In this document: positions 8,532 through 42,007 of the stretch, piece after piece
Position numbering within the stretch: position 1 is the first letter of the stretch
Layout: every line of letters starts with the position of its first letter
Origin: Patescibacteria group bacterium
Lineage (GTDB): Bacteria; Patescibacteriota; Minisyncoccia; Phycocordibacterales; JACOZG01
DNA length: 64,000 bases
Reading direction: 5' to 3'
NCBI GenBank assembly: GCA_038064435.1
Contig: JBBTTC010000003.1
Location: forward strand, 9,205-73,204
Position numbers and translations under genes: made by a program
Notes under the pieces: generated by a model
Databases searched by the model: none
Seen by the model: only the letters and a program-made list of their open reading frames with translations
What the model was told of the DNA's origin: nothing

Positions 8532-8931
8532 GTTCTATCGCTGTGAGTATTTACGACACCTTCATAACCTATTTTAGCAGAAATCAGACCTGATTACCCC
8601 TTCATCCACCCCTTCATCGGCTCTGCTACCGGATGAAGGGGCAAGAAGGACAATATCTCTAACAAACACGGGAGATTTTGCCCCTTACTCCTCGCAAAAG
8701 CGAAGTCCGACTTCACTACGGAAAGAGGGTCGCTCCGCTCCGGCCTGCTGGCCTCCGCTCCGCGAATGTCGCGGGGGTTGCGTTTGGGTGGCTCGGCCTT
8801 CTCGTTCCGTCCTGCTGTTTCTTTTTGCTCGTCGTGGGGGGGTAATTTAAGACGGGGAAAAAGGAAGGACGGAACGATGAAGGCCTCGGTTCGGGGGTCG
8901 GTTAGGCGTATAATGACAATATAACGCTTCT

Positions 8932-9795
8932 ATGTCAAAACCGCGCTTAAAACCATTTCAACGCTCTGGGGTGGCCGACCCCCTCAAATTGCAGCCCCGC
9001 GACATCGCTCTCCTCCGCGATGTGGCCGAGTTTCGTTTTCTTAACTCTGGGCAGATTCTCGCGCTTCACGAGGGAAGTAAACGCAACCTCCAAGAACGGC
9101 TGACCCGTCTTTTTCAGCACGGCTATCTTGACCGTCCCGTGAGCCAAACCACCGCCAATCTGCCTTCCACTCACATCGTTTACTCACTCGGCCGCAAAGG
9201 AGCGGAGTTCCTCTCCAAGAACGCGGAGGAGCGCGAAGGGATTTATCGCCGCCTCGCCGAATCTGAACGCACGCTTCCCCTGATTGCTCACTCGTTGATG
9301 ATTTCCCAATTCCGCGTCTGTCTCTCGCTCGCGACGAAGCAAAGCGGAGTAAAAGTCGTTCACTGGTTTCAAGGGCAAGATTTAAAAAATCTTTTACATT
9401 CGGTTCACGGCGAAAATCCCTCATTAGTGCCGGACGCATTTTTTACGCTTGAAGAAAAAGGAGATGTTATCAACTTTTTTGTGGAAGCTGACCGAGGAAC
9501 GATGACGACGGAAAGGTTTGTAAATAAATTAAAAACATATTGGTCGTGGCGTAGCGACGACAGGTTGAAAGAGAAACTTCGCCTTGCCCGTTTCCGCGTC
9601 CTCACTCTCACCCCGTCCGAAGGACGGAGCGAGAGTTTACGGAACGCTGGAAAGGGCGGTGACCCGCGAGGAGAAGGAAGTTTGATGTTTTTATTCACGC
9701 CCGAAACTCAATATAATTTATCCGACCCCAAAAAGTTGTTAGAGCCGATTTGGAAGTCGCCGAAAGACGACACATCTCACACGATTTTGGAATAA
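8932..9795 (+). CDS. Replication-relaxation family protein (plasmid/ICE-associated; hedged)
   Basis: 287 aa; N-terminal LRDVAEFRFLNSGQILALHEGSKRNLQERLTRLFQHGYLDR pattern typical of Replic_Relax-family (winged-helix-like) proteins of actinobacterial plasmids/ICEs. Confidence 0.5.
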   Translation: MSKPRLKPFQRSGVADPLKLQPRDIALLRDVAEFRFLNSGQILALHEGSKRNLQERLTRLFQHGYLDRPVSQTTANLPSTHIVYSLGRKGAEFLSKNAEEREGIYRRLAESERTLPLIAHSLMISQFRVCLSLATKQSGVKVVHWFQGQDLKNLLHSVHGENPSLVPDAFFTLEEKGDVINFFVEADRGTMTTERFVNKLKTYWSWRSDDRLKEKLRLARFRVLTLTPSEGRSESLRNAGKGGDPRGEGSLMFLFTPETQYNLSDPKKLLEPIWKSPKDDTSHTILE

Positions 9796-9874
9796 GTGGT
9801 AAAATGAAGTTGTAAGTTTTCTTGGTCGTATGGTCGTGCGACCTTAATTAAGCAGTTATTTAATAAAATCTTAT

Positions 9875-10495
9875 ATGGGATTATTCAGCTTCAACAAAGC
9901 ACCGGAAATTAGGGACGAAAATATCGCTCAAGAATGGTCGCAACTTGTGCTTCAAATGGGAAACAGGGGCGAAGAACTCCTCAAAAGAATCGCTCACAAG
10001 ATTCAGGAGTTAAACTTGCCGCTCGTTACGCTTATGCGAGAAGAAGCGACGCTCGGCAGTTCCAACAATCGCTATAATTTTGTTTCCGTAATGCACGAGA
10101 AGTATCCTGACTACAAGGTTTGGATAGGAGCTATTGACCGAATGGGGCAACTTAAAGTTTCGTGGTTCTTGGTCGTTAAGTTACCGAATGTCATAACCGC
10201 CAAAATGCGGGATTTGAATCGCGCGTCTCGTGGCGGCAAGGAAAGGGTGTTGCGACCGGGACAACGGCTCGGCCGAATGCTCGGAGCAAAACTCTCCGAA
10301 AAGATTACCGGAAAGCCGACTCCGGTTCGTGTGCGTCCCGACGAATTGACGATGGACGATAAGGAAGAATACGGCGTGTTTATGTCGCTCATTCACCAAG
10401 CGACGACCTCCAGTTTGGGGGAGATGATGAACGAGCTTAACTTGGACTTCACCAAAGTGGACACGCACACCGAGGGCTTCGTTAATCTTTCGTAG
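9875..10495 (+). CDS. Hypothetical protein (island cargo)
   Basis: 206-aa ORF, no recognisable motif, low GC. Confidence 0.4.
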   Translation: MGLFSFNKAPEIRDENIAQEWSQLVLQMGNRGEELLKRIAHKIQELNLPLVTLMREEATLGSSNNRYNFVSVMHEKYPDYKVWIGAIDRMGQLKVSWFLVVKLPNVITAKMRDLNRASRGGKERVLRPGQRLGRMLGAKLSEKITGKPTPVRVRPDELTMDDKEEYGVFMSLIHQATTSSLGEMMNELNLDFTKVDTHTEGFVNLS

Positions 10496-10497
10496 TT

Positions 10498-12486
10498 ATG
10501 GATAATGATTTTGTAAAACAACTTCGGAATTTCTTTACGAAGCCGAAGTCCGAGCCGGTATTGCCTATTAAGTCGCAGGAGCCGCTCGTGCGTTCTCGCG
10601 CTCCCAATCCTAACGAGCTTGCTTTAGGTTGGGCGGGAGGCAAAGATGAAACGAACGGGCAGGAAGTCCACCAACTTAAAGGGGTGTCCCAAGAAGTCCG
10701 AGACACTCATTTTTATATTATTGGTGCTTCAGGAAGCGGTAAAACGCGATTTTTAGAAACACTCATCAAGCAAGATATAGAAAACGATTTGGGCTTTGGC
10801 GTAATTGACCCGCACGGCGACCTTACGGAAGACATAAAAGGTTATCTCTATCTCTTACACAAAGACGACCCTAAATTTCTCCAAGAGAATATCGTTTTGA
10901 TTGACCCGACTAACAAGGAACAAGTTGTTGCTTTCAATCCACTTGAAATAACAAAAGGAGAATCGGCCGCGTCCATAGCTTCTGAACTCACGGAAGCGTT
11001 TAAGAAAATCTGGCACGACGCTTGGGGAGCGAGAATGGAGGATTTGTTGAAAAATACCCTCATCGCCCTTATTCAAAATAATCTCACGCTTGCCGAACTT
11101 CCACTATTTTTGACCGATACGGAAGTGCGTCGCAAGATTTTGGGAAAAGTAGAACACGGCGTAAGCCGCCAGTATTTTAATAGGTTTAATAGTTTACCTC
11201 GCAGAACACAGGACGAGTGGGCGGAATCCACGCTCAACAAAGTAAACGCTTTTTTGTTTGATAACAGTATTCGGCAACTGCTCGCTTCACCAAAAAGCTC
11301 TTTCAATCTGCGGGAAGCGATGGACGAGGGCAAGCTGATCCTCGTCAAGCTGGATAAGGGCAGATTGAAAGGAAGTGCTGACTTGTTGGGTTCTTTACTA
11401 CTCGCCAAAATACAGGCGGCGGCGTTCTCCCGAACGGACACGCCGGAACTGCAACGCAAGAAGTTTTATCTTTACATAGACGAGTTTCAAAATTTCGCTA
11501 CCGAAAATTTTATAACTATGCTTGGCGAGGCTCGCAAGTATCGGCTCGCTCTTTTGCTTGCTCATCAAAATCTCGCTCAACTGCCGACGACTTTAAGGGC
11601 TTCCATTCTCTCTAACTGTGGACTTCAAGCATATTTCAGAATCTCACGGGACGATTCCAACATTCTTGCGAAAGAATCTCTTGCCTCAATTTATAACGAG
11701 CCGACCGGATGGGAGAGTTATATCCAAGCACTCCAAGAATTGCCTAGTCGTGCTTGCGTTATTAAAAATAAAGTTGACGGCGGAGTTATCGCCGTTCGGA
11801 CGCTTGATTTGCCGTCTCCTCACGAAGTCGCGGAAACAGAAGAAAAAGAATTTGCGGAGGAAATCGCGGCTTGTGAGATAGGAAAAAAATATCTGCGAGG
11901 ACGAGAGGATATTGAGAGAGATAGCCGAGTAAGACGAGAAACTCTTTTGGCTACCAAAGAGCCAGAGAGCTTTAGAGAAAAGAAAATGACCGAAGATATA
12001 AATTATGAGGAAATTATAAAAGGCGGAGAGAATGACTATGTGGAGTTCAAGTCATCAATCCGATACGACTACAAAAACGGAGGAAAAAGCAAATCAATTG
12101 AATATGTTATCTCCAAAGCAATTTCTTCGTTTATGAATACGGACGGCGGAAGGTTGTTTGTTGGTGTGGACGATTTCGGTGAAATTAGCGGAATAGAAAA
12201 TGATTATGCCGATGTTCACCATAAAAACAAAGACGGCTTTCTACTCCAATTAAACAACATCATTAACCATTATATCGGCAAAGAATTTCACCAGTATTTG
12301 AGAGTTAAAATTATGCCAATCAAAGAGAAAGATGTATGCGTCATTGAGGTAATTAAAAGTAAAACTCCGGTATTCTTGAAAGACGGAGACAAAGAGGAAT
12401 TTTATATGAGAGCGTCCGCCGCTTCACAACCAATGAGCGTTAGGCAAGCCAACGAATACATCAGGACCCATTTTCACGGAAGATAG
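10498..12486 (+). CDS. TraD/VirD4/FtsK-HerA-superfamily P-loop NTPase fused to C-terminal AlbA_2 (Schlafen-like) putative DNA-binding domain
   Basis: Walker A HFYIIGASGSGKTRFL, VIDPHGDL, Walker B YLYIDEFQNF, TraG-D_C-like LLLAHQNLAQL; C-terminal about 160 aa (YVEFKSSIRYDYKNGGKS...FMNTDGGRLFVGVDDFGEISGIEND) matches the AlbA_2/Schlafen fold signature. Confidence 0.6.
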   Translation: MDNDFVKQLRNFFTKPKSEPVLPIKSQEPLVRSRAPNPNELALGWAGGKDETNGQEVHQLKGVSQEVRDTHFYIIGASGSGKTRFLETLIKQDIENDLGFGVIDPHGDLTEDIKGYLYLLHKDDPKFLQENIVLIDPTNKEQVVAFNPLEITKGESAASIASELTEAFKKIWHDAWGARMEDLLKNTLIALIQNNLTLAELPLFLTDTEVRRKILGKVEHGVSRQYFNRFNSLPRRTQDEWAESTLNKVNAFLFDNSIRQLLASPKSSFNLREAMDEGKLILVKLDKGRLKGSADLLGSLLLAKIQAAAFSRTDTPELQRKKFYLYIDEFQNFATENFITMLGEARKYRLALLLAHQNLAQLPTTLRASILSNCGLQAYFRISRDDSNILAKESLASIYNEPTGWESYIQALQELPSRACVIKNKVDGGVIAVRTLDLPSPHEVAETEEKEFAEEIAACEIGKKYLRGREDIERDSRVRRETLLATKEPESFREKKMTEDINYEEIIKGGENDYVEFKSSIRYDYKNGGKSKSIEYVISKAISSFMNTDGGRLFVGVDDFGEISGIENDYADVHHKNKDGFLLQLNNIINHYIGKEFHQYLRVKIMPIKEKDVCVIEVIKSKTPVFLKDGDKEEFYMRASAASQPMSVRQANEYIRTHFHGR

Positions 12487-12915
12487 AGAGAAGCAGGTTT
12501 GACATTATATGAAAGTATGTCATAGCATTCCCAGAACCTTGCCCGTATGGGTAAGGTCTCAAGGGGGTCCGTATGGATTCCCTTGTTCCTTTTTTGGATT
12601 GAAGAAGAACTAAACCGCCCGCCGTTAATAAGGTTCGGACTTAAAAGAAAATTGCGTCTTGCCTTTCCGTTGAAAATCGCGTTGCGATTTCCATCGTCGG
12701 GCTTGCGCTTGCGATTTTCTTTCGCGTCCTTCGCGCCCGACAGAAAAAAGACTTCGCGGACAGCTTTACTCATTGAAAGATCGCTTGGCGATTTTCAATT
12801 CGGCCTGCTCCGCTTTTTTCTTCGGTCGCCATTTATACCCCCACCCAACCACCCTTCCGAGAGCGCGAAAGAATGATTTGATTTATTTTTCCCAATCCAT
12901 CTATACTTTGTATAG

Positions 12916-13236
12916 ATGGATAACGAGGGTGAGAAAAAAGAGATTGATTGGGGTCAAGAATCCGTTAATGCCCTAAACAGAAGTCAGACAAGCAAAACTG
13001 AAAAAGCGAAAGAAATCGCAGAAGTTCAGTTAAAAGCTTATAAACACATAGATGATGTGGTAAAGCATTTCGGGCCTCCAGATAGAGAATTTTTTAATAG
13101 CCTCACGTTAATTACGGGTGTTATTCCGCTACTTTTCGCCCTTCTTTTTTTCGCTAACGCAGACCCGGGGGAAGAATGGGTGGGAGGTCTCCTAATCTTC
13201 GTGGGGATTTATGGATGGTGGTGGTCTATCAAATAA
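12916..13236 (+). CDS. Small membrane protein (hypothetical)
   Basis: 106 aa; C-terminal two hydrophobic helices; palindrome ccatctatacTTTGtatagatgg overlaps start. Confidence 0.4.
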   Translation: MDNEGEKKEIDWGQESVNALNRSQTSKTEKAKEIAEVQLKAYKHIDDVVKHFGPPDREFFNSLTLITGVIPLLFALLFFANADPGEEWVGGLLIFVGIYGWWWSIK

Positions 13237-13458
13237 AACCCTATCCCTATCAATCTTGACTTTTCCCACGATAATATTGTATAACCTTTTTAAGTTTCAT
13301 TACCCCCGCTTCTCCGGCAAAACGGATGTCGCAGGCGGGACGGCTTGGGGAATACGAGCCGACCCCGAACTTTAGGCAATCATTCCCGATTGGTTAAAGC
13401 AGGAATGGACATATAAATAAGTTTGTAGGCACACGACAAGGAGCGAGCAATCGCTCCT

Positions 13459-14961
13459 TTGTCTTTGGAAAAGAAACTACGGGAAACAGTTTTTACTCCT
13501 TTGGACGAACAACATTTAGAAGAAATAGAATCGCTTGGAGAAACGACTTTCAGGGAACAGCGTAGGGCGTTCGGCATAAAGACGAAAGACCGCCGCAATC
13601 ATATCTACATTATCGGTAAAACGGGAACGGGCAAATCTACCTTATTAAAAAATATGGTGATTCAAGACTTGCGCTTGAATCACGGCGTTGCTTTGATTGA
13701 CCCGCACGGCGACTTGGTTGAAGACTTATTAAATTACATTCCGAAAACTCGCACGAACGAAGTTGTCTATTTCAATCCTGCGGACAAAGAAAATCCGGTC
13801 GCTATCAATATTCTTGAAGCTAAAGGCGACGACGAAAAACATCTCGTCGCTTCATCGCTCATTTCTGTTTTTCGTCATTTGTGGCGGGACTTCTGGGGTC
13901 CCCGCCTTGAACACATTTTATACAACTGCGTCTTGGCTTTGATGGACACGCCCGGGCAAACCTTGCTCGGCGTATATCGTATGCTTGTGGACAACGAGTT
14001 TCGGAAACTTATTGTCGGGAATATCCAAGACCCGATTGTAAAAATGTTTTGGGTTGATGATTATGAAAACTATGACGAGCGTTTTCGTAAGGAAATAATC
14101 TCACCCGTTCAAAACAAAGTCGGACAACTTCTTACCAGTCCCCAAATGCGAAATATTGTCGGCCAACCCAAAAGTTCGGTGGACTTCGGTTTTGTTATGG
14201 ACAATAAAAGAATCCTCTTAGCCAACTTATCCAAGGGGAAAGTATGCGGCCTTATCCGGTGCGGAACTTGTGGTATGGGCATTACCGCCGAGCGGAAAAC
14301 GAAATACCAAAAGAACGGGAATGTTCACCACTACACCTATTATCGTTGCTCCCGAAAAAATAAAGCCGTCAAATGCTCCGAGCCGCCCATTCGGGAGGAG
14401 TTGCTTGATAAGCAACTATCAAATCTACTCCAACCCTACAAAATGCCGCCGGATTGGGCGACCGAGATTTCCAAGATGTCCGACAGGGACGAGAAGGAAG
14501 CCATCCAATCCGCGTCCGCCATCGTTCAAGGGTATAAAGCCGAGATACAAGCCATCTCTCAAAAACTCCAACGCCTTCTTAACGCATATCTTGACCAAGA
14601 TATTGAGCGGGAAGCATACCGCTTAGAGAAGGCAAACCTTCTCTCCCGCAAGAAGTCGTTGGAGGAGAAAATGGCCGAAGTCGCAAAGGGGGTATCCGCT
14701 TGGGTTGAACCCCTGCGCGATTGGTTGAAAGACGCGCAAATGCTTAACGAAATACACGAAGACGCCCCTCTTTCTCTTAAAAAATCTTTCGCCAAAAAAA
14801 TCTTCGGGTTGAACCTGACACTTCACGCGCGCGAAGCGCGCGGCGTTGCGGAAATTCAATGGGCTTCCGTTGCGGAAGCCCATCAAAAAATTGGAAAAAC
14901 TGATACTTGTTTGTTCTTGGTGCGCGGTGAGGGACTCGAACCCCCGGCCTACCCGGTGTAA
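13459..14961 (+). pseudogene. Chimeric ORF: N-terminal TraD/FtsK-like ATPase paralog (truncated after Walker A half) fused in frame to zinc-ribbon + coiled-coil tail of a large serine recombinase; reads into tRNA-Val
   Basis: NHIYIIGKTGTGKSTLL...ALIDPHGDL parallels ORF 10498 up to ...LSKGKV, then CGLIRCGTCGMGITAERK...HHYTYYRCSRKNK (recombinase zinc beta-ribbon) and a coiled-coil; last 14 codons translate tRNA-Val sequence. Confidence 0.5.
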
Positions 14962-14993
14962 ACGGGTTGCTCTACCAACTGAGCTAACCGCGC
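14918..14993 (-). tRNA. tRNA-Val (anticodon TAC), CCA encoded
   Basis: RC: GCGCGGTTAGCTCAGTTGGTAGAGCAACCCGTTTACACCGGGTAGGCCGGGGGTTCGAGTCCCTCACCGCGCACCA; anticodon loop TTTACAC. Confidence 0.85.
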
Positions 14994-15012
14994 ATGAACA
15001 AAATTTACCTGA

Positions 15013-15084
15013 TCCCCTCGGGAAGAATCGAACTTCCATTTAGGGATTAGAAGTCCCTGGTTCTATCCATTAAACTACGAGGGG
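15013..15084 (-). tRNA. tRNA-Arg (anticodon TCT)
   Basis: RC: CCCCTCGTAGTTTAATGGATAGAACCAGGGACTTCTAATCCCTAAATGGAAGTTCGATTCTTCCCGAGGGGA; anticodon loop CTTCTAA; C1-G72 acceptor. Confidence 0.65.
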
Positions 15085-15106
15085 AAGTGCCCAAACTATA
15101 TGGCAA

Positions 15107-15424
15107 TCAACGCGCTGGGTCAACGATGACAGATGGCTGACTCTTTTGGCGCTCAAACCCTGCTTGGCGCGCCGCCAACTCGCGGAGAACACGCTCTAGT
15201 TCGTCGGGGTTTAATAATTTATCAGGATCAAGCGATGTTGGAGTCATCACTGTTTGACCAGCAATACCAGCACCCACATCAAGTCCGCGCATAATTATTG
15301 AGGCGGCAACAAACAATCCCGCCACCAAAACCAAAAAGACGTAAATCAACCGGCGCCAGTCGCGAGCTGGGTTAGGTTCAATTTTTTCTTTGTCGTAACG
15401 ACGTTTAAACATTGGGAAATTCAA
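15107..15424 (-). CDS. Small bitopic membrane protein at end of pilMNO operon (PilP-like position; hypothetical)
   Basis: 105 aa, one TM helix; overlaps pilO end. Confidence 0.4.
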   Translation of the reverse strand: MNFPMFKRRYDKEKIEPNPARDWRRLIYVFLVLVAGLFVAASIIMRGLDVGAGIAGQTVMTPTSLDPDKLLNPDELERVLRELAARQAGFERQKSQPSVIVDPAR

Positions 15425-15971
15425 AACCTAATAATTTAGCCTTGAAAGATCCGCGCCAACGTCGGGTGGCCGGCGTGGATGTGCTCGCCGTGGCACTCAC
15501 TCCCTCGGTCGACAATAGCATCTCGTCAAATACAATTTCCAAGGGCCAAGTCTCGATCACAGTTATTAACTGATGAAGCTGGGCAAAGCTGCCAGTGGCA
15601 TCAAACTGAAGGTCTAGATACCCACCAGCGGCATTGGGCTCCACGACTCGAACACTAAACACAACCCCACTACCACCAAGCACCGACTCAAGCTGATCCA
15701 AAAAGCCGGCGATCTCGGGCCGATCGTCGGTAATAAAATTATTAGCGAGCGTGGCGCGGCCGGCGGCCGTGGCCGTGGAGATCTCAACCAAACGCTGGAA
15801 ATATCTGGCCTTTTCTTCACCAATAGTGATCTCAGTGGCCAAACCACCAATACGGCCCCACTCTTTTTGCCCCAGCCAGATCAAACCGATCAAAATAGCC
15901 AAACCAAAAACATTAAAGCCAAGCATGGCCAGCAGACTGGGGCGGAGACTAATTGATTGATTAAGTTTCAT
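15405..15971 (-). CDS. pilO: Type IV pilus assembly protein PilO-like
   Basis: 188 aa, N-terminal TM then coiled-coil; operon position after PilM/PilN. Confidence 0.5.
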   Translation of the reverse strand: MKLNQSISLRPSLLAMLGFNVFGLAILIGLIWLGQKEWGRIGGLATEITIGEEKARYFQRLVEISTATAAGRATLANNFITDDRPEIAGFLDQLESVLGGSGVVFSVRVVEPNAAGGYLDLQFDATGSFAQLHQLITVIETWPLEIVFDEMLLSTEGVSATASTSTPATRRWRGSFKAKLLGFEFPNV

Positions 15972-16528
15972 GGTTGGTGAGTAACCGGCACCCTCACGTC
16001 GAGCGTAATATCAAAGTCAACCTGGCGATTTTTAATCAGGTCCGACACTGGTGACTCAATATTACTAAATATCGGCTCCGACTTGAGCGCCGCCACCCAA
16101 TCTAGTAAAACCGCCCGCGTCGTAGCTTGACCCGACATCTTAATCTCCCCCTCCACGTCAGAATGACGTAAGTAGTGGATGGACCCAAGACTAATACCGG
16201 CAGGACGCAAGCTGATCAATTTAGTTAGTAAAGCTGCCGTTCGATGATCACTCTCCAGCCATTGGCGAAAGGTGGTGAGACGTTTCGCCGATTCGGCAAG
16301 TTCAACCCGCAAACGATCAAAGCGTTGCACGTCAACTACTCCCAGCACTTGCGCCAACTCTCGTTCTAGCTGCCGACGCTCGGTGACTATCCGCAAATAA
16401 AATGACCCCACCATCAAGCTAGCCAACACCAAGAGCACTGCCAACAAAAATCCGGCCAAAATAAAACGGCGGCGGCGATAATCGCGGCGGCGAGCTAGAC
16501 GATCAATCGGCAACAATAAGTTAATCAT
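15968..16528 (-). CDS. pilN: Type IV pilus assembly protein PilN
   Basis: N-terminal INLLP motif (MINLLLPIDR), basic stretch, single TM, coiled coil. Confidence 0.7.
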   Translation of the reverse strand: MINLLLPIDRLARRRDYRRRRFILAGFLLAVLLVLASLMVGSFYLRIVTERRQLERELAQVLGVVDVQRFDRLRVELAESAKRLTTFRQWLESDHRTAALLTKLISLRPAGISLGSIHYLRHSDVEGEIKMSGQATTRAVLLDWVAALKSEPIFSNIESPVSDLIKNRQVDFDITLDVRVPVTHQP

Positions 16529-17616
16529 GAAGTGAGGTGGAAACGACGCAACGCCAAACCGAGCGAAGTTGCGTAACGCAAGGATTGATTAAGATTAATA
16601 CTCGGGATATATTCATCGAGCGAAAATAAATTAGTCCACACATTGCCCAGAGCCACCGGTAAACCTAAACTCAAATTAAGATAATCGACCAAGCCGGGTA
16701 AGGTAGCTTGCCCGCCGCACAAGATGACGCGCCCAATTTTATTGGTCGACGTAGCAGTGGCACTTTGGTGAGTCAACCAATAACTTAACTGCTTGTTAAT
16801 CTCATCGCGCAACACCGAGACCAACGGCACAATCGCAAAAAAAGTTTCGCGATTGGCGGCCGAAGGCAAAAAACCACGTTCGACCTTGTAGCGTTCCGCC
16901 GTGTTGTAATCAGTGCCGAGTGTTTTCTCCAGTGCATGAGTAATATCTTCCCCTCCAATGTTGTTGACGGTTGACGTCCAGAGCACCTGCCGACCGCGCG
17001 TGACAAAAAAACTGGTCCGTGTTTTGCCAAAATCTACCACCATCACCAAATCACCGGCGGCCGATGTTTGAGCCACCACCGCTCGCACCACCGCTTGCGC
17101 CTCAATCTCCATAGCCTCGGCCACCAACCCGCCGGCGGCCACCACCCCAGCATAGGCGGCCACGATTCTCTTCGGCAAGGCCGTCACGGCCACCTCCAGC
17201 TTGGCTCCGCGCGAAACAATTTCATAATCAAAAACCGTATCGGCGACAGCGAGCGGAATATGCTCTTCCAACTGCAATTCCAAACTGCCACGAACATCGG
17301 CCTCATCCATGAGTGGTAGGGCCAAGCGCACCAAATACGCTTCCTCCTCTGGCAAAGACACGGCCACCTGACGAAAGCGGGCCCGTCGACTCAAGGCCAA
17401 CAACACCTTAGCCAAAACTTCAGGTTGCTTAATTTCTCCGGCCTCCACGGCCCCGGCCGGCACTGCCTCGTCACCATAATCTATGAGACGCAGGCCGGCC
17501 GGCCCGTAATTTAGTCGCACAAATTTAACTGACCGATCAGAGATGTCAAGACCCACCGCCGCCGGCGCCAAATAATGCGGCGGCGGGAACAAACGCAAAA
17601 ATTTATCATGAGCCAT
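16525..17616 (-). CDS. pilM: Type IV pilus assembly protein PilM (actin-like ATPase fold)
   Basis: 363 aa; VGLDISDRSVKFVRL N-terminus, FtsA/PilM-like glycine motifs (DFGKTRTS, ILCGGQA). Confidence 0.8.
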   Translation of the reverse strand: MAHDKFLRLFPPPHYLAPAAVGLDISDRSVKFVRLNYGPAGLRLIDYGDEAVPAGAVEAGEIKQPEVLAKVLLALSRRARFRQVAVSLPEEEAYLVRLALPLMDEADVRGSLELQLEEHIPLAVADTVFDYEIVSRGAKLEVAVTALPKRIVAAYAGVVAAGGLVAEAMEIEAQAVVRAVVAQTSAAGDLVMVVDFGKTRTSFFVTRGRQVLWTSTVNNIGGEDITHALEKTLGTDYNTAERYKVERGFLPSAANRETFFAIVPLVSVLRDEINKQLSYWLTHQSATATSTNKIGRVILCGGQATLPGLVDYLNLSLGLPVALGNVWTNLFSLDEYIPSINLNQSLRYATSLGLALRRFHLTS

Positions 17617-17636
17617 GACTCTTTAGTATAAAACGA

Positions 17637-18020
17637 TTACGGCCGTCGCTCCAGATAGTTTCGCAAAATCAATGACGCCGCGCGGGCATGACTGTTATCA
17701 TCAACAATTTCTCGATCAGCTTCGACGCTTGTTAAATCTTCGCGCTCCCAAATTACCGGCAAATTCAACTGCTGCTCCAATTCTAATTTAAATTTGACTA
17801 CCGCCGCAGTAATGTCGTTGGACTGACGGGCTAAATTGAGAGCGTCACCGAGAACAATTTGCTCCACCTGTTCATTCCTCACCAGCTTTACAATTTGCGA
17901 CAATGTCGTCGACGAATTGGCAATCACGCTATGCGGCTGAGCAATCGTGCCACTTGGATCAGAGAGTGCCAAGCCGATGTGTTTGCTACCGTAATCAATA
18001 CCCAGAATTCTCACCCCCAC
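17637..18020 (-). CDS. ruvX: Holliday junction resolvase-like RuvX/YqgF
   Basis: RILGIDYGSKHIGLALSD...IVLGDALN RNase H-like YqgF signature. Confidence 0.85.
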   Translation of the reverse strand: MGVRILGIDYGSKHIGLALSDPSGTIAQPHSVIANSSTTLSQIVKLVRNEQVEQIVLGDALNLARQSNDITAAVVKFKLELEQQLNLPVIWEREDLTSVEADREIVDDNSHARAASLILRNYLERRP

Positions 18021-18055
18021 ATCATACCACCGTAACCAAGTTGTGCTAAAATAGA

Positions 18056-18319
18056 ATGATGATTGATCTGCAACACTGGGATGAAATTAATGCCTTTGTG
18101 GAAGCCAACTGGTTACCGCTTCTAATTTTCACCATCTGGACATTGACCTGGAAGGGCTGGGCTCTGTGGCGCGCAGCTCATGACGAGCGCCGAGGTTGGT
18201 TTGTGGCCATCCTACTGCTTAACACGCTCGGCATCTTGGAAATTTTTTATCTCGGCTTTGTGGGTCGACGGCAAAAACCGTCAGCCACCAGCTCGACTTC
18301 GATCGAGGCCGATGCTTAA
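18056..18319 (+). CDS. Small membrane protein (hypothetical)
   Basis: 87 aa, two hydrophobic helices. Confidence 0.4.
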   Translation: MMIDLQHWDEINAFVEANWLPLLIFTIWTLTWKGWALWRAAHDERRGWFVAILLLNTLGILEIFYLGFVGRRQKPSATSSTSIEADA

Positions 18320-18328
18320 ATAAAACTG

Positions 18329-18364
18329 GAGGGGTGGCAGAGTGGTCTATTGCACCGGTCTTGC
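18329..18364 (+). repeat. 36-nt direct repeat = orphan copy of tRNA-Ser 5' half (positions 1-36, ends at anticodon TG)
   Basis: ggaggggtggcagagtggtctattgcaccggtcttg identical at 18329..18364 and 18630..18665; followed by two GC hairpins (cccgcc-aga-ggcggg; tccgcc-tcc-ggcgga). Confidence 0.75.
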
Positions 18365-18629
18365 CCGCCAGAGGCGGGTCCGCCTCCGGCGGAAAAACCA
18401 TGGCCTGCATCTACATTCTACATAGCAGAAGCGCCAACAGATTTTATGTCGGTTCGAGCCGAGAAGATGGGCCCGCCCTCAGACTAGCCGCGCACAATGC
18501 CGGTAAGACCAGGTCGACAAAAGCTTATCGGCCTTGGATTCTGATAAAATGTGAGGACTTCCCTAACTACACCGTAGCGCGAAAAAGAGAGAACTTCCTG
18601 AAGTCGGGTCAGGGGAGAAAATGGATTAA
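18329..18629 (+). mobile_element. About 300-bp insertion cassette (tRNA 5'-half repeat + hairpins + GIY-YIG nuclease gene) immediately 5' of tRNA-Ser
   Basis: Structure tRNA[1-36] - insert - intact tRNA[1-88]. Confidence 0.5.
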
Positions 18630-18666
18630 GGAGGGGTGGCAGAGTGGTCTATTGCACCGGTCTTGA
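18401..18666 (+). CDS. GIY-YIG family nuclease (free-standing, about 88 aa)
   Basis: MACIYILHSRSANRFYVGSSRE...LAAHNAGK...YRPWILIKCEDFPNYTVARKRENFLKSGQG: GIY...YVG, R, HN, E motifs of COG2827-type GIY-YIG; ORF terminates on the anticodon TGA of tRNA-Ser. Confidence 0.7.
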
Positions 18667-18717
18667 AAACCGGAGTCCGCCTTGTGTGGACCGTGAGTTC
18701 GAATCTCACCCCCTCCG
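18630..18717 (+). tRNA. tRNA-Ser (anticodon TGA), long variable arm
   Basis: GGAGGGGTGGCAGAGTGGTCTATTGCACCGGTCTTGAAAACCGGAGTCCGCCTTGTGTGGACCGTGAGTTCGAATCTCACCCCCTCCG; anticodon loop CTTGAAA. Confidence 0.85.
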
Positions 18718-18725
18718 TCTTTGTT

Positions 18726-19751
18726 TTAATTCCCCGCTTCTACCTCCGACCACGGAGTGGAAACTTGCGGGGCGGAAATTTCCGCCGGTTGATTATAGCT
18801 AGCGGCTGACCAATCAAGTTCGTATTTACCGTTTAGTTGATAATCTGGCTGGTCAGGTAAACCCTTAAATAAGCCGGTGAGAGAAAAACGGTAGGGTAGG
18901 TGATCTTTTTGGCCAATCCAAATCTCGCCCGACGGTAAAGAAATTTGCCCCAGCAATGTTTTAAATTCCTCAACTTCCTCCGGGGCCAAAGCACCCTGCT
19001 GACCAAGGGCAGCAGCTAAACCATCCACCCACCTTTGCCACGACTCACGATTAACCTCAATTTGAAAATGATGGGCCGATACACCCTCGATTTTCCCGCC
19101 CGGCAGGCGCGCACCAGCGCGCAATAATTCCGTTAGCTTAATATTACCCAAGGCCTGTGGCAAAGCAACGGCAATGGGATCAAGCTTAATCCAACCAACA
19201 TCAAGAGCCCGATTCAAAACTAACCAGTTATTTTCTGGCCAGCGCTTAAGACGAAAATAAGAATCGGCGCCCAACAAACGGTACTCGACCTCAGCCGTGA
19301 TGGACGACGAAGTAGCCGCAACCAAGTCACCAAATGGTAGACCAAATGTTTCCAATTCCACCACTCCGGAATGTCGATCAGGGTAAACTGTGTTAAAGCT
19401 GGCTCGCAAGGCAAGCAAAAGGTTGTCCACCGAGCCAGCGGCGGCGGCCAATCGATCATTTTTACCCACCGCCTCAACGCGCAACTCAAGCTTGGACTGC
19501 CGTGCCGTTAGCTGACTCTCGGCCGCGGCCATTTTGACCATCACGGCCTCCGGCGCCTGCCATAGGGGCTCGAAATAGAAAAAATAGGCCGCGGCACTAA
19601 TCCCCGCCACTAAAAATAAAAACAATACAAAAAATATCCAGCCACCGCCGGGGGCCGGCTTGGCCGCGGCACTAGCGTTCTCAGCCGCGCGCATCAGTTC
19701 ATCAAGTGACGGACTAGGATTGGGAGCTGGCTTAGGTGCATCTTCAAGCAT
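18726..19751 (-). CDS. Membrane-anchored hypothetical protein (Pro/Ala-rich N-terminus, one TM)
   Basis: 341-aa ORF; 3' end abuts tRNA-Ser. Confidence 0.45.
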   Translation of the reverse strand: MLEDAPKPAPNPSPSLDELMRAAENASAAAKPAPGGGWIFFVLFLFLVAGISAAAYFFYFEPLWQAPEAVMVKMAAAESQLTARQSKLELRVEAVGKNDRLAAAAGSVDNLLLALRASFNTVYPDRHSGVVELETFGLPFGDLVAATSSSITAEVEYRLLGADSYFRLKRWPENNWLVLNRALDVGWIKLDPIAVALPQALGNIKLTELLRAGARLPGGKIEGVSAHHFQIEVNRESWQRWVDGLAAALGQQGALAPEEVEEFKTLLGQISLPSGEIWIGQKDHLPYRFSLTGLFKGLPDQPDYQLNGKYELDWSAASYNQPAEISAPQVSTPWSEVEAGN

Positions 19752-19762
19752 AACTACTTCTA

Positions 19763-20254
19763 TTGTATAATGGATGCAAATTAATGACCACGCCGGAAGT
19801 GTTAATTAGTTGGCAAACACACGAGTACCATCATCGACCGCGGTCGAGCCGATGGTTCCTCGTTGTTGGCGGCCTTGCGGCCGCCCTCACCGTTGGTGCC
19901 CTGTGGTTCAATAATTTTTTGCTGGCCATTATTTTGGTCGTGGGCACCATCACGCTATTTATTTACAGCCAGCGCCAGCCCGAGGAAATCACCTGCGCCA
20001 TCACCACTGGCGGCGTGCTGATTAAAGACAAACTCTATCCTTTTTACTCGCTTCAATCATTCTGGCTCCACCACGGGCCGGTGGCGCCGCAAGTCAGTCT
20101 CAAATCGGATCGAGTGTTTTTTCCGAAAATTATTTTACCCGTCAGTGCTACGGTGGAATTGGAAGAATTGCGCGAGCATTTGCTTGCCTTTCTCGACGAA
20201 GACAGGCATGATGTGACATTGCTTGAGGCCCTGGCCGACTATTTAATTCACTAG
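19763..20254 (+). CDS. Hypothetical membrane protein
   Basis: 163 aa, two TM helices. Confidence 0.4.
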   Translation: MYNGCKLMTTPEVLISWQTHEYHHRPRSSRWFLVVGGLAAALTVGALWFNNFLLAIILVVGTITLFIYSQRQPEEITCAITTGGVLIKDKLYPFYSLQSFWLHHGPVAPQVSLKSDRVFFPKIILPVSATVELEELREHLLAFLDEDRHDVTLLEALADYLIH

Positions 20255-20257
20255 CTT

Positions 20258-20329
20258 GTCCCCGTAGTTCAACGGATAGAATATGAGCTTGCGGAGCTCA
20301 CGATCGAGGTTCGATTCCTCGCGGGGACA
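20258..20329 (+). tRNA. tRNA-Arg (anticodon GCG, unusual)
   Basis: GTCCCCGTAGTTCAACGGATAGAATATGAGCTTGCGGAGCTCACGATCGAGGTTCGATTCCTCGCGGGGACA; anticodon loop TTGCGGA; short variable loop (4 nt). Confidence 0.6.
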
Positions 20330-20338
20330 CAACGAAAT

Positions 20339-20581
20339 TTACTTAGTTTTAACCACCAACCGCGCTAGTTGCGACTTGCGCCGGGCGGCAGTGCCGGCCT
20401 TGAGAACGCCGCGTTTAACGGCCTTGTCGATGGCCTGATAGGCTTGAGACAAAGTTGCCACACTAGGCGTTTGCTTGGCGGCACGCGCGGCTACACGCAT
20501 CGCTTCTTTGCGATGTAAATTAAAAACACGGCGCCGCTTGGCCACCCGCAGAGCTTTAATCGCTGATTTAGTAATCGGCAT
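20339..20581 (-). CDS. rpsT: 30S ribosomal protein S20
   Basis: MPITKSAIKALRVAKRRRVFNLHRKEAMRVAARAAK...IDKAVKRGVLKAGTAARRKSQLARLV typical S20. Confidence 0.85.
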   Translation of the reverse strand: MPITKSAIKALRVAKRRRVFNLHRKEAMRVAARAAKQTPSVATLSQAYQAIDKAVKRGVLKAGTAARRKSQLARLVVKTK

Positions 20582-20644
20582 AATTAACGGGCTAAGACTA
20601 GCATCAATTTGGCGGTGAGGCAAATTTAGTTATAGAATGGCGAC

Positions 20645-21226
20645 ATGATTGCCCGACTCCATGGCCAAATAGCTTGGCGGGATGATAAAACTGTTATCCT
20701 CGACGTAGCAGGCGTTGGTTATCGCGTTCACCTGTCCACTAGCGGCCAGGCCGCCGTGACTAATCAAGAAACCGTAACCTTGTGGACCTATCTGGCCGTG
20801 CGCGAGAACGCCCTTGATCTCTTTGGCTCGCCCGACAAGGCCGAGATTGATTTCCTGGAACTGCTGATTACTGTGCCGGGCATCGGCCCCAAAAGCGCTC
20901 TAGCTATTTTGTCTTTGGCACCGCCGGCCACATTGCGCCGAGCCGTGTTAGAAGAAAATGTCAGCTACCTAACCCAAGTCTCCGGCATCGGCCGCAAAAG
21001 CGCCGAAAAAATCATTGTTAACTTAAAAGACAAGGTGGGAGTGGGCGCACTGGAACAAACCGGCGAACTGGGCGCCACCGGCGACCTCTTAGCCGCCCTG
21101 CAGGCGCTCGGCTACACCCTAGTCGAAGCTCGGACAGCAATTAAGAATTTGCCGGCCGGACTGGACGACGATCGGGCTCGCCTACGTGAAGCACTAAAAA
21201 TTCTTGGTCGACCGGCAAAATCGTGA
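20645..21226 (+). CDS. ruvA: Holliday junction DNA helicase subunit RuvA
   Basis: MIARLHGQIAWRDDKTVILDVAGVGYRVHLS...LITVPGIGPKSALAILS (HhH motifs). Confidence 0.85.
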   Translation: MIARLHGQIAWRDDKTVILDVAGVGYRVHLSTSGQAAVTNQETVTLWTYLAVRENALDLFGSPDKAEIDFLELLITVPGIGPKSALAILSLAPPATLRRAVLEENVSYLTQVSGIGRKSAEKIIVNLKDKVGVGALEQTGELGATGDLLAALQALGYTLVEARTAIKNLPAGLDDDRARLREALKILGRPAKS

Positions 21227-22443
21227 TCACTTTTCTTAAAAAAATTATCCCGACTGACCTGTTTCGTTGGCTCCAGCCTATTTATCACTATAAACTGGCC
21301 CTGCTTGGCGCGTTGATTTATCGCTTCCCGTCTCGCCAGCTGTATGTTATCGGCGTTACCGGCACTAAAGGCAAAAGCTCGGTGGTAGAAATGATCAATG
21401 CCCTACTGGAGACTGCCGGCCGGCGCACGGCCGCGGCTTCGACTATTCGTTTTAAAATCGGCCCGGCCAGCCAACGCAATTTGTATAAAATGACTATGCC
21501 CGGCCGACTAGTACTCCAACGTTTTCTCCGCCAAGCAGTGACGACCAGCTGTACTCACGCCATTATTGAAATGACCTCCGAAGGTGCGCGGCAATTTCGC
21601 CACCGTTTTATTGATCTTGATGCGTTAATTTTTACCAATTTATCACCCGAGCATATTGAATCACATGGTTCAGTGGAAAAATATCTGGCCGCCAAATTGA
21701 GTTTAGCCCGAGCGTTGGCCAGTTCACCCAAAACCAATAAATTGCTGATAGTTAATGCTGATGATGCTGTGAGTGAAAAATTTGTCGCCACGGCTGGGCC
21801 AAAGGTGAAAGTAATAAAATTTTATCCGTCTCGCGACAATGAGCAAATTGCCTCTCCCCTGCCTGGTGACTTTAATCGCGCCAACTGGCTAGCGGCTCTA
21901 GCGCTCGGACGAGAATTAAGTGTAACCAATGATGCCACCCGAGCGGCGATAAAAAAACTGACCGTCATCCCCGGCCGGGTGGAAGAAGTAGTAGCGCAAC
22001 CATTTCGCGTTATTGTTGACTACGCCCACACCGTTGATTCACTAACCAAACTCTACCAAGCCTTCGCCGATCAGCGAAAAATTTGCGTTTTGGGCGGTAC
22101 CGGCGGCGGGCGTGATCGCTGGAAGCGGCCGCTGATGGGTCAGCTAGCCAGCGCTCATTGTGACCGCGTAATTTTTACCAACGAGGATCCGTACGATGAA
22201 GATCCGGTGGCCATCGTGGCTGAAGTGGCGGCCGGCGCCGAGCGCACTAACCACGAAACCATCCTCGACCGCCGCGCCGCCATCGCCCGCGCCATTACCC
22301 TCGCCCAGCCGGGCGACGTGGTTTTAATCACTGGCAAAGGCACGGACCCCTACATCATGGCAGCCCAAGGCCAAAAAATACCGTGGGATGACGTCCGCGT
22401 CGCCCGCGAAGAACTAACCCATGCCCGAACTGCCGGAAGTTGA
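21223..22443 (+). CDS. Mur ligase family protein (MurE/MurT-like)
   Basis: P-loop VIGVTGTKGKSS, Mur ligase middle-domain DxDALIFTNLSPEHIESHGS, C-terminal domain. Confidence 0.55.
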   Translation: MITFLKKIIPTDLFRWLQPIYHYKLALLGALIYRFPSRQLYVIGVTGTKGKSSVVEMINALLETAGRRTAAASTIRFKIGPASQRNLYKMTMPGRLVLQRFLRQAVTTSCTHAIIEMTSEGARQFRHRFIDLDALIFTNLSPEHIESHGSVEKYLAAKLSLARALASSPKTNKLLIVNADDAVSEKFVATAGPKVKVIKFYPSRDNEQIASPLPGDFNRANWLAALALGRELSVTNDATRAAIKKLTVIPGRVEEVVAQPFRVIVDYAHTVDSLTKLYQAFADQRKICVLGGTGGGRDRWKRPLMGQLASAHCDRVIFTNEDPYDEDPVAIVAEVAAGAERTNHETILDRRAAIARAITLAQPGDVVLITGKGTDPYIMAAQGQKIPWDDVRVAREELTHARTAGS

Positions 22444-23284
22444 AACAATTAGGCGCGAGTTGAAACCGGTTATTATCGGCCGGCGAATCGAGCGAGTCAA
22501 AGTACTCTGGCCAAAAACTGTGGCGCCAACTTCAGCGCGCCGCTTCCAAACTAGCTTACGCGGCCAAACCGTCACCGGCCTGGGGCGGCGCGCCAAAATT
22601 TTATTAATCAAACTGGCTAACAATCTAACTCTAACCATTCATCTCAAAATGACCGGCCAATTAATTTACCGCCACAGCGAATATCAAATCGTCGGCGGTC
22701 ATCCACAGGCCGGCGGCGCCGACAATTTACCCAATCGTTTTACTCGTCTGGTATTAGATTTTGATAATCGCGGTCAACTGTTTTTCAACGACGCGCGCAA
22801 ATTTGGCTGGAGCCGACTACTCACTGGCGCTGACCAAGCCGAGCTAATCAGGCATTTTGGCCCCGAGCCACTGACACGAGATTTTAGCCAGAATTATCTG
22901 GCCCAATTAGCGGCCCGCTACCCCCGCCGGCCAATCAAGGCCCTACTGCTGGATCAAACATTAATCGCCGGCCTCGGCAACATTTACGCCGACGAAAGCT
23001 GTTTTCGCGCCGGCCTGCAGCCGGCGCGGCTGGCCGGCAGTTTAAAACCAGCAAACACTGCTCGCCTGCATCAAGCCATTCAACAAATATTAAAACTGGC
23101 TATCAGCAAAAAAGGCACATCGGCGCGTGACTATCGTCGGCCCAACGGTCAACAGGGTAATTTTGCCGACCTGCTTCAAGTGTATGGTCGAGGTGGAAAA
23201 CCCTGCTTGGTCTGCCGCCAAATCGTCATCAAAAATCGTCTGGTTAGACGCGGCACCCACTCCTGCCCAAGATGCCAACACTAA
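22421..23284 (+). CDS. mutM: Formamidopyrimidine-DNA glycosylase (Fpg/MutM)
   Basis: N-terminal MPELPEVETIRR, H2TH region, C-terminal zinc finger CLVCRQ...CPRCQ. Confidence 0.85.
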   Translation: MPELPEVETIRRELKPVIIGRRIERVKVLWPKTVAPTSARRFQTSLRGQTVTGLGRRAKILLIKLANNLTLTIHLKMTGQLIYRHSEYQIVGGHPQAGGADNLPNRFTRLVLDFDNRGQLFFNDARKFGWSRLLTGADQAELIRHFGPEPLTRDFSQNYLAQLAARYPRRPIKALLLDQTLIAGLGNIYADESCFRAGLQPARLAGSLKPANTARLHQAIQQILKLAISKKGTSARDYRRPNGQQGNFADLLQVYGRGGKPCLVCRQIVIKNRLVRRGTHSCPRCQH

Positions 23285-23767
23285 TTAGCGATCAAACCAG
23301 CGAAATAAGGCCACCGCCGTGGCCACCACCACATTAAGTGACTCCTTACCACCGCGCATTGGAATTTCTACTATCGTATCGCATTGCTTCAAGATGGCCG
23401 GATCAACGCCTCGTAACTCGTTGCCAATAATTAATGCCGCGCGCTCGGTCGGGAGAAATTTTTTGTAATCAACTGAACGCGCGCTCTGTTCGAGAGCCAC
23501 CAGTTGATAACCGTCGCGACGCAAAGTGGCGAAGAGTGATCCAGGACGCGTGAGCCCCGACCAGGTCACCAGCCGCTCGGCCCCCAAAGCGGTTTTGGCT
23601 ACTTTTTTATTGATCCGCCCATAGCGATCAATGGGTCGCGGCGTGTAGCCGGTCAAAAATATTTTTTCCGCCCCAATGGCGTCAGCTAAGCGAAAAATTG
23701 CCCCAACATTATGCGCGCCTCGGAGGTTATGTAGAATCAAACAAAATTTTTTTGTCTTTGTAACCAT
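23285..23767 (-). CDS. SpoU/TrmH-family RNA 2'-O-methyltransferase
   Basis: HNVGAIFRLADAIGAEKIFL...LIIGNELRGV...EIPMRGGKESLNVVVATAVALF SPOUT motifs. Confidence 0.75.
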   Translation of the reverse strand: MVTKTKKFCLILHNLRGAHNVGAIFRLADAIGAEKIFLTGYTPRPIDRYGRINKKVAKTALGAERLVTWSGLTRPGSLFATLRRDGYQLVALEQSARSVDYKKFLPTERAALIIGNELRGVDPAILKQCDTIVEIPMRGGKESLNVVVATAVALFRWFDR

Positions 23768-23787
23768 AGCTGTGCTAGGATAGCAAG

Positions 23788-24111
23788 ATGCTAAATCCTT
23801 GGCCAGAGCTTCTGACTTTTGGACTAGTGGCTCCCCTTGGGCTACGTTTAGTGGCCGGCTTGGTCTTTGTTAATAGTGGCTGGCAACAAATTAAAACGTC
23901 TAATGAAAAATTAATTGGTCTCTGCAAACTGCTGGGTGGCGGCCTGATTACACTCGGCCTGTTCACCCAACCGGCAGCGGCCCTTTTGGGTTTATGGTCG
24001 CTCCGCGACTGGAAAACAAAAAGAGGGTCGCAGTACCCGCTACTGGCGGCCATCTGTCTGTCTCTGCTTTTCTCCGGTGCCGGTTTTTTTGCCTTCGATT
24101 GGCCGTTGTAA
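23788..24111 (+). CDS. DoxX-family small membrane protein
   Basis: 107 aa, 3-4 TM helices, RLVAGLVFVNSGWQ DoxX-like; opposite-strand ORF 23775..24134 judged shadow. Confidence 0.5.
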   Translation: MLNPWPELLTFGLVAPLGLRLVAGLVFVNSGWQQIKTSNEKLIGLCKLLGGGLITLGLFTQPAAALLGLWSLRDWKTKRGSQYPLLAAICLSLLFSGAGFFAFDWPL

Positions 24112-24126
24112 ATTAAATTTAATATT

Positions 24127-24199
24127 GCGCCCATAGCTCAGTTGGTAGAGCAGCTGCCTTTTAAGCAGACGGTCGCAGGTTCAACTCCTGCTGGGCGCA
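24127..24199 (+). tRNA. tRNA-Lys (anticodon TTT)
   Basis: GCGCCCATAGCTCAGTTGGTAGAGCAGCTGCCTTTTAAGCAGACGGTCGCAGGTTCAACTCCTGCTGGGCGCA; anticodon loop CTTTTAA. Confidence 0.8.
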
Positions 24200-24203
24200 C
24201 ACC

Positions 24204-41812: not shown

Positions 41813-41879
41813 GTTATGAATCTCTATTTAATCTTACTTAAAGAATTTGATGGCAATAATTATCCTGTTGATATGTTAA

Positions 41880-42007
41880 TAACTCGATCTTAACTTTATT
41901 TTTAGCCGTTTTTTGGATTGAGGCCTGTGGATAAGGTCTGATCAGATTATGGCTAGAGAGTTGACTATTTATCAGCATTCACGGCCTATCCACTGCTTAT
42001 CCACAGG
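41880..42007. promoter_or_regulatory. DnaA-box cluster / candidate oriC element between dnaN and dnaA
   Basis: Perfect TTATCCACA at 41997..42005 (+) and 41926..41934 (as TGTGGATAA), 7/9 box cTATCCACt at about 41986; AT-rich tract 41881..41920. Confidence 0.6.

Follow-up and report, generated by a model that had tools for sequence, protein, structure and literature searches.

The hybrid open reading frame (ORF) at 13459–14961 on the + strand of the window, by which is meant the whole 64 kb stretch of DNA analysed here, is the front of a T4CP/HerA-like ATPase (ATPase2) joined in frame to the back of a large serine recombinase (LSR) of 514–545 aa. In all likelihood, a deletion of 6–11 kb in an integrated element joined the ATPase front to the integrase back, and the region from ~8546 to 14922 represents a decayed integrative mobilizable element (IME) at the very 3' end of tRNA-Val(tac). 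Judging from the sequence, this deletion very probably killed both the ATPase and the integrase and locked the element at tRNA-Val.

Structure of the hybrid ORF

The hybrid ORF is listed with a TTG start and a length of 500 aa, and neither a stop codon nor a frameshift interrupts its 500 codons. Homology to intact ATPases in a tblastn search begins at 13501, a TTG that matches their Met1; the listed start at 13459 is probably over-extended by 14 codons, with TTG 13501 as the true start, and the hybrid measures 486–500 aa depending on which of the two is taken. Besides tRNAs, only a weak hairpin (13438–13459) was found by Rfam and promoter/terminator scans. The ORF is divided as follows.

13501–14243, + strand: ATPase2 5' part, 248 codons (tblastn with P0011 residues 1–248, 94% identity; blastn homology with the ATPase2 genes of L003 and L004 runs to 14243)
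14243–14245, + strand: deletion junction, ...GGGAAAGTA / TGCGGCC... (compared base by base with two intact ATPase2 and two intact LSR genes)
14245–14922, + strand: LSR 3' part, ~226–227 codons, comprising zinc ribbon, coiled coil and C-terminal tail (blastn; tblastn with P0078 residues 273–499)
14923–14961, + strand: read-through of the ORF into the antisense tRNA, …RGEGLEPPAYPV and stop (read from the sequence)

The ATPase N-terminus is hydrophilic by eye, with no N-terminal membrane segment seen on reading the sequence, and carries the Walker A P-loop GKTGTGKS at residues 53–60. Pfam matches to the ATPase part are TrwB_AAD_bind at residues 42–184 (2.8e-10) and DUF87 at 46–124 (DUF87 is also given, jointly with TrwB_AAD_bind, on 42–184). 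Residues 28–264 align with residues 51–292 of the neighboring ORF 10498 at 32% identity (E 1e-39), and the alignment ends at ...LSKGKV/CG, exactly where an earlier note, made from the letters alone, had placed the end of the parallel between the two ORFs. The switch to an LSR zinc ribbon and coiled coil that it described beyond this point is borne out by the match to Zn_ribbon_recom (PF13408) at residues 264–322 (E 4.2e-10). In an AlphaFold model made with 30 homologues, β-strands at residues 274–297 are followed by long helices at 331–379 and 384–413 (pLDDT, 82–96), which represent the zinc ribbon and the coiled coil; the model is poor for the core with the truncated P-loop domain (residues 1–130; pLDDT, 32–57). 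Neither Resolvase (PF00239) nor Recombinase (PF07508) was matched by the hybrid ORF in Pfam, and homology to the LSR P0078 starts only at its residue 273, which confirms the absence of both domains noticed earlier. The ATPase copy stops at residue 248 and lacks Walker B (hhhhDE) together with the C-terminal half of the ATPase core; in intact P0011, the Walker B FYLYIDE, aligned with that of TrwB, lies at ~282–288, which is ~35 codons past the break.

Parent genes and breakpoint

Each half of the hybrid has its own set of intact relatives. A search of 5.8 billion protein clusters gave hundreds of intact ATPases of 424–443 aa that match the first half only, with up to 94% identity, and intact LSRs of 514–542 aa (Resolvase, Recombinase and Zn_ribbon_recom) that match the second half only, with ~92% amino acid identity; clusters holding both halves numbered 3. 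Among GTDB genomes, every match to the hybrid either ends at residue 262 or starts at 262–264, and the top ATPase match has 96% amino acid identity over residues 1–262. At the DNA level, homology to ATPase2 genes stops at 14243 and homology to LSR genes resumes at 14245, corresponding to LSR codon 273. The breakpoint, which the earlier note had suggested mapping by alignment, is thereby set at 14243/14245. The LSR part (14245–14922) is 92.9% identical over 678 nt to positions 820–1497 of the L003 LSR gene and 90% identical to the L001 LSR gene, and is without the first ~272 LSR codons, which contain the catalytic and recombinase domains. In the alignment of P0078 with A118 integrase, the LSR break lies just 5' of the first zinc-ribbon cysteines. 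Intact ATPase2 genes continue past 14243 as ...GGCGAAGATAAATC, and the ambiguous homology at the junction amounts to ≤3 nt when two intact ATPase2 and two intact LSR genes are compared. Neither an LSR N-terminal part nor an ATPase2 C-terminal part was found displaced elsewhere in the 64 kb window by tblastn. The gene hit by the deletion had been taken for a copy of ORF 10498; that it encodes an ATPase holds, but ATPase2 is a separate conserved paralogue of the element.

Another decayed ATPase2, P0122 (113 aa; on a 269,546 bp ENA contig), has lost 1 nt in a T run and reads ...GEDKSNLWDRPS to a stop, which lies a few codons beyond the position of the window's breakpoint. ATPase2 codons 248–255, where P0122 ends, were considered as a breakpoint hotspot and rejected, as P0122 represents a 1-nt frameshift and not a deletion junction.

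Reproducibility of the junction

The same junction was found on a separately assembled contig of Hain_H41_01um_R2 (72,014 bp; coverage, 23), which is 99.88% identical to window positions 8787–24961 (~16 kb), and on a contig of Hain_H41_01um_R3 (72,172 bp; coverage, 30). An 84,882 bp contig present in both NCBI and ENA codes for the identical fusion of 500 aa, and a further cluster member with a variant of the fusion (P0123) is listed on a 90,001 bp contig. The junction thus recurs in three or more separate assemblies from a single groundwater population. Runs of the Hainich H41 0.1 µm samples underlie ERZ1292619 and ERZ1292624.

An assembly chimera, in which the assembler had joined the ATPase gene of one element to the LSR gene of another, can be imagined in such a sample: the same aquifer is rich in related elements (L031, L055 and L056 are from Hainich H41/H52/H32 bins), two H41 contigs break inside the repeated left arm of the element at ~8626 and ~8787, and a 74-nt patch (13962–14035) differs among assemblies. 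However, the identical junction recurs on at least three separately assembled contigs at 23–30x coverage and therefore is not the mis-join at ~14250 that the earlier note had named as its possible undoing. Since the parents share so little sequence at the join, no k-mer could bridge them, and the flanks on both sides are collinear with the order of intact elements. We therefore regard a chimeric assembly as scarcely credible and a genuine deletion as the source of the junction.

The two H41 contigs mentioned above are the replicate assemblies, and their ends within the left arm suggest that the arm is repeated in the community or strain-variable. In the ATPase2 patch at 13962–14035 fall all differences between the window and the independent contig L002 over 16 kb except one (14688), and each version of the patch resembles other ATPase2 alleles; it could have arisen by gene conversion from related elements, or by strain mixing in the consensus.

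Organization of the element remnant

Upstream of the hybrid ORF, the following features of the remnant were identified.

8546–8931, no strand: left-end non-coding arm (P' arm), which precedes the relaxase gene and contains CCCCTTCA repeats as well as small hairpins (homologous to L003 5623–5990)
8932–9795, + strand: Replic_Relax relaxase (PF13814, MobC-type), 287 aa, intact (Pfam E 9e-27; 287 aa orthologues at the same position in L003, L004 and L007)
9875–10495, + strand: conserved hypothetical element gene, 206 aa, without a significant Pfam match (same position in L002, L003 and L004)
10498–12486, + strand: first coupling-protein-like ATPase, ORF 10498 (Pfam TrwB_AAD_bind 7e-11, TraG-D_C 9e-7, AlbA_2 1.7e-17)
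12916–13236, + strand: small predicted ORF, 106 aa, with a hydrophobic C-terminal half (ORF list; called as a gene in L002)

The GC content is 0.42–0.48 over 9–15 kb versus ~0.50–0.53 outside. Among the five ORFs of the element, and in the gene tables of L003 and L004, no Pfam match to a mating pore (VirB4/T4SS) was found. ORF 10498 has an extra C-terminal AlbA_2/Schlafen domain (aa 511–647), which the L003 and L004 orthologues (498–499 aa) do not have; the stretch 11915–12600 is without counterpart in L003, and the extension may have arisen by another gene fusion within this element. Elsewhere in the window, positions 41000–43000 form a second low-GC stretch (0.41–0.42) with long minus-strand ORFs, which may be another island.

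Intact relatives and the lost segment

A common layout was found in L001 (a 412 kb contig), L003, L004, L007, L009 and L010, in which gene order and strand match the window. From left to right, it consists of attL, the Replic_Relax relaxase, the hypothetical gene, the T4CP-like ATPase 1 (~499 aa), ATPase2, a second attP in inverted orientation, defence cargo and a small HTH gene (both on the opposite strand), the LSR, and attR/tRNA. The gap between the positions equivalent to the two sides of the breakpoint measures 5.9 kb (L010), 7.9 kb (L007) or 10.7 kb (L001). Compared with this layout, the window has kept the relaxase (8932), the hypothetical gene (9875), ATPase 1 (10498) and the small ORF (12916), and is missing the 3' third of ATPase2, the second inverted attP, the anti-phage defence cargo, the HTH gene and the catalytic half of the LSR. 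The cargo comprises a type III R-M system and an OLD/Gabija-like ATPase in L007, and a PDC-S37/Hhe-like helicase-nuclease in L010. Of its own integration/excision enzyme, the window element keeps only the non-catalytic tail, and the relatives with a full recombinase that the earlier note had hoped for are provided by L001, L003, L007 and L010; a search of IMG/VR with the intact LSR gave no relatives. The reading of the hybrid as a scar that inactivated both the integrase and an ATPase is supported by the near-identical intact relatives of its two halves (up to 96% and ~92% at the amino acid level) and by the intact elements, in which the two genes have the same order and strand and 5.9–10.7 kb separates the parts that are joined in the window.

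The second attP, which is complete and located between ATPase2 and the cargo, joins the final ~160 nt of the LSR ORF to the core and to a piece of the left-end arm that measures ~300 nt at most, and was mapped to the following positions (one locus per line).

L001: 1086–1284
L003: 11100–11301
L004: 11334–11790
L007: 11392–11840
L009: 11366–11650
L010: 7445–7607
L046: 92–199
L050: 7823–7970

Within one element the twin attP copies are 92–100% identical, whereas the same regions differ by 10–25% between elements, and the attP core co-varies with the tRNA target. This arrangement recalls the inverted FRT repeats found on the yeast 2-micron plasmid; no flipped isomers were found, with 6/6 close relatives in the same orientation. 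The second attP of the window element was taken away by its deletion. In L008 (1949–2028) and L041 (~1300–1950), ATPase2 is followed by an inverted copy of the left arm, the core, and unrelated DNA in place of the LSR 3' end, and no LSR is present nearby; such loci may represent the element reduced to its backbone. L003 was considered as a closed circle and rejected, its ends being only 73% identical, in favor of a tandem arrangement or a walk across variants; an attP-type junction is nonetheless present in it.

Attachment sites and tRNA target

The attachment sites of the window element were deduced from the attP-type junctions of L003 and L055.

8532–8560, no strand: attL, chromosomal flank GTTCTATCGCTGTG / element left end AGTATTTACGAC..., with the crossover within GTG 8543–8545 (comparison with attP forms)
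14905–14930, no strand: attR, element end ...TTGTTCTTGGTG / CGCGGTGAGGG, the latter being the tRNA-Val acceptor stem (comparison of attR, attL and attP)
14918–14993, − strand: tRNA-Val(tac), intact, the integration target (ARAGORN; Rfam tRNA, 71.7 bits)
Restored attB, reconstructed from the attL and attR flanks: …CTATCGCTGTGCGCGGTGAGG…
Expected attP junction of the window element: TTGTTCTTGGTGAGTATTTACGAC

The sequence from 8546 on matches the region after the LSR stop in the attP forms of L003 and L055, and the sequence before 8546 does not. The sole shared att core is GTG, located at the discriminator/CCA end of the tRNA, and the CCA end of tRNA-Val is supplied by the element; tRNA-Arg(tct) comes after tRNA-Val(tac). 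No direct repeats of the tRNA-Val 3' end flank the island, as expected for a serine recombinase whose core spans 3 nt. A search of JGI metagenomes with the empty attB gave 0 matches, a search with the attR junction for elements at the same tRNA gave 2 matches, both ordinary tRNA-Val genes without an element, and no intact progenitor at this same tRNA-Val was found in the same species.

With its 3' end, the LSR gene of 8 family members adjoins the CCA end of a tRNA on the minus strand, which is a different one each time (Val-tac, Arg-ccg, Gly-gcc, Gln-ttg, Thr-cgt, Leu-caa, Lys-ctt and Leu-cag). The LSR/tRNA sites are as follows.

Window: 14905–14930
L001: 11514
L005: 7645
L007: 19314
L010: 13045
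L040: 3034
L046: 2050
L056: 220

In every case, the LSR ORF crosses the att crossover into the antisense tRNA, and its last 12–40 residues change on integration, so that the last residues of the LSR differ between the free and integrated forms. The final codons of the hybrid ORF are indeed tRNA-Val sequence, as had been noticed (the last 44 nt are antisense tRNA-Val), but they do not belong to the scar: since intact LSRs next to other tRNAs also read through, the run into tRNA-Val is the normal 3' end of this LSR family.

The first 36 nt of a further tRNA gene of the window, tRNA-Ser(tga), which reach as far as the anticodon loop, recur exactly 302 nt upstream (18328–18717), and a small ORF between the repeats (IYILHS..FYVGS..RL..HN) resembles a GIY-YIG nuclease by eye. 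L001 likewise has a GIY-YIG gene next to its target tRNA.

Probable deletion mechanism and predicted consequences

We infer a non-homologous deletion of ~6–11 kb, probably made in a single step, that would have extended from ATPase2 codon ~249 to LSR codon ~272, with the reading frame kept by chance (one in three). Deletions that remove the cargo would have to end in the genes that flank it, which are ATPase2 and the LSR. The predicted product, having a P-loop without Walker B, should for that reason not hydrolyse ATP, and its zinc ribbon and coiled coil, although DNA-binding modules, would be unable to recombine because the catalytic serine domain is missing. With no recombinase left, attL and attR would be stranded and the element fixed in the chromosome.

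The deletion had earlier been described as either recombinase-mediated or illegitimate, and the junction favors the second term. In favor of a deletion made by the LSR itself, by cutting pseudo-att sites inside ATPase2 and its own gene, the right breakpoint falls exactly on a 7-nt stretch, CTGTGCG, that the LSR gene shares with the core of the reconstructed attB (attB, ..TCGCTGTGCGCGG..; L001 LSR gene, ..GTCCTGTGCGGCC..; in the window, 14236–14250 versus 8538–8545 plus 14923–14930). A 7-nt match found post hoc is weak, however, and the left side (GTN/GGC, conserved Val-Gly codons) has no matching TG dinucleotide and resembles neither att arm. A conservative serine-recombinase exchange therefore cannot yield the observed join, which lies outside the att sites and whose two sides have no crossover dinucleotide in common; in addition, the two other fusions described below break at other places. 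It is accordingly very unlikely that the recombinase made the deletion, and an illegitimate event remains the preferred explanation.

Other ATPase2–LSR fusions and the question of selection

Independent in-frame fusions of ATPase2 to an LSR were found in two other lineages, represented by P0002 in L005, which adjoins a tRNA-Gly and has the junction ...GELGEDL/FRYMGELHEG..., and P0028 in L006, with the junction ...ASILSN/PFYTG.... The junctions of the window, P0002 and P0028 fusions differ, lying at ATPase residues 248, ~251 and 343 and at LSR residues 273, ~229 and ~219, respectively, and P0028 has lost the coiled coil. The window-type cluster has four members (three near-identical 500-aa fusions and one frameshifted fragment), the P0002-type cluster four, and the P0028-type one. 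No diverged relatives of any of the three were found in the protein cluster search, a search with P0002 gave no further fusion clusters, and when 1.84 billion 50%-cluster representatives were scanned exhaustively with HMMER, none of the best 150 matches spanned both halves. Because each fusion is confined to a narrow cluster with its own junction and without diverged relatives, the arrangement is not a conserved architecture, the other outcome that would have spoken against a scar; each fusion rather looks like a young, lineage-restricted event.

That one gene pair has been fused in frame three times independently is nevertheless more than might be expected, and a selected function has to be weighed. 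The zinc-ribbon and coiled-coil module on an ATPase stub might act as a decoy that blocks excision or further integration, binding att half-sites or the coiled coil of incoming recombinases. Retained as an anti-recombinase, the tail, expressed from the ATPase2 start, would pin the element and protect the tRNA site, and the three in-frame fusions would then be convergent solutions and not accidents. The uninterrupted 500 codons and the confidently modelled coiled coil of the hybrid are in keeping with such a role, and no relative of the relaxase or T4CP1 was detected near the fusion in L005 and L006. The dN/dS values against intact relatives are not raised in either half (tail, 0.22–0.24 versus 0.25; head, 0.06–0.10 versus 0.07), giving no signal of relaxed selection; the lack of a positive sign of decay fits a recent event and equally a retained function. 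On the other hand, the clusters are tight (n = 4, 4 and 1), the junctions differ, P0028 lacks the coiled coil, and no 50%-cluster representative among the best 150 holds both halves. That all three known fusions are in frame is also explained by the search itself, because a protein search detects in-frame cases only. Altogether, retention of the hybrid for such a function seems improbable, and we prefer to regard it as the scar of a recent deletion.

Significance and comparison with known systems

Taken alone, the fusion illustrates in a routine way how an integrated element turns into a fixed remnant, and "pseudogene-like chimera" is the proper annotation for the hybrid ORF in place of "type IV secretion DNA-binding protein". 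More interest attaches to the element family around it, which ferries defence systems, has a serine recombinase that targets the CCA end of many different tRNAs, and carries two inverted attP sites with near-identical arms. No description of such elements in Patescibacteria or CPR bacteria was found in the literature, and the family is widespread and apparently undescribed. A tRNA-end serine integrase with an easily retargeted core could interest researchers of integrase specificity and of gene flow in CPR bacteria.

As to the integrase, the intact relatives align to the LSRs A118 (LI) integrase (PDB IDs: 4KIS and 6DNW) and SPbeta SprA/YokA (PDB ID: 9DXH). They resemble these LSRs in comprising Resolvase, Recombinase and Zn_ribbon_recom domains, and the window ORF keeps the zinc ribbon and coiled coil; unlike LSRs, the window ORF is without the first ~272 residues, including the catalytic domain. 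The family is further set apart by an ORF that extends over the crossover site, with its last 12–40 residues changing on integration, and by close relatives at eight different tRNAs. Further large serine recombinases are phiC31, Bxb1 and TnpX. As to the ATPase, the P-loop and the all-α region that follows it match TrwB_AAD_bind and DUF87, as in the T4CP/HerA/FtsK ATPases (TrwB, PDB ID: 1E9R; VirD4/TraD), although TrwB itself is matched only weakly, at E 1e-3 and in the P-loop region alone, and the window copy ends before Walker B.

At the level of the element, the closest resemblance is to streptococcal IMEs of class 8, which combine a serine integrase, a relaxase of the PF13814/MobC family and a VirD4-type coupling protein (Coluzzi et al. 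2017, PMC5357655); PF13814 is classed there as a MobC relaxase family, and the serine integrases of streptococcal IMEs almost always insert inside protein genes, disrupting them (PMC5357655). In common with class 8, the present family has a Replic_Relax/MobC relaxase, a coupling-protein-like ATPase and an outward-facing serine integrase at one end, and is compact, without VirB4/T4SS. It differs in its Patescibacteria host, the two ATPase paralogues, the defence cargo, the tRNA CCA-end target that is left whole, and the second inverted attP of intact members; the window copy is, moreover, a deleted, immobile remnant.

The actinomycete ICEs pSAM2 and SLP1 are small elements at tRNA 3' ends with a tRNA-proximal integrase and FtsK-like transfer ATPases; elements of this type mostly use tyrosine integrases and have long tRNA-derived direct repeats. 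Here, by contrast, a serine recombinase with a core of 3–6 nt is found, and no direct repeat flanks the element. In grounded or cryptic prophages and decayed ICEs with truncated integrases, recombinase function has been abolished by an internal deletion, and what is left is a fixed remnant containing chimeric ORFs. The window element belongs to this category of cryptic, grounded remnants, from which it differs in nothing essential.
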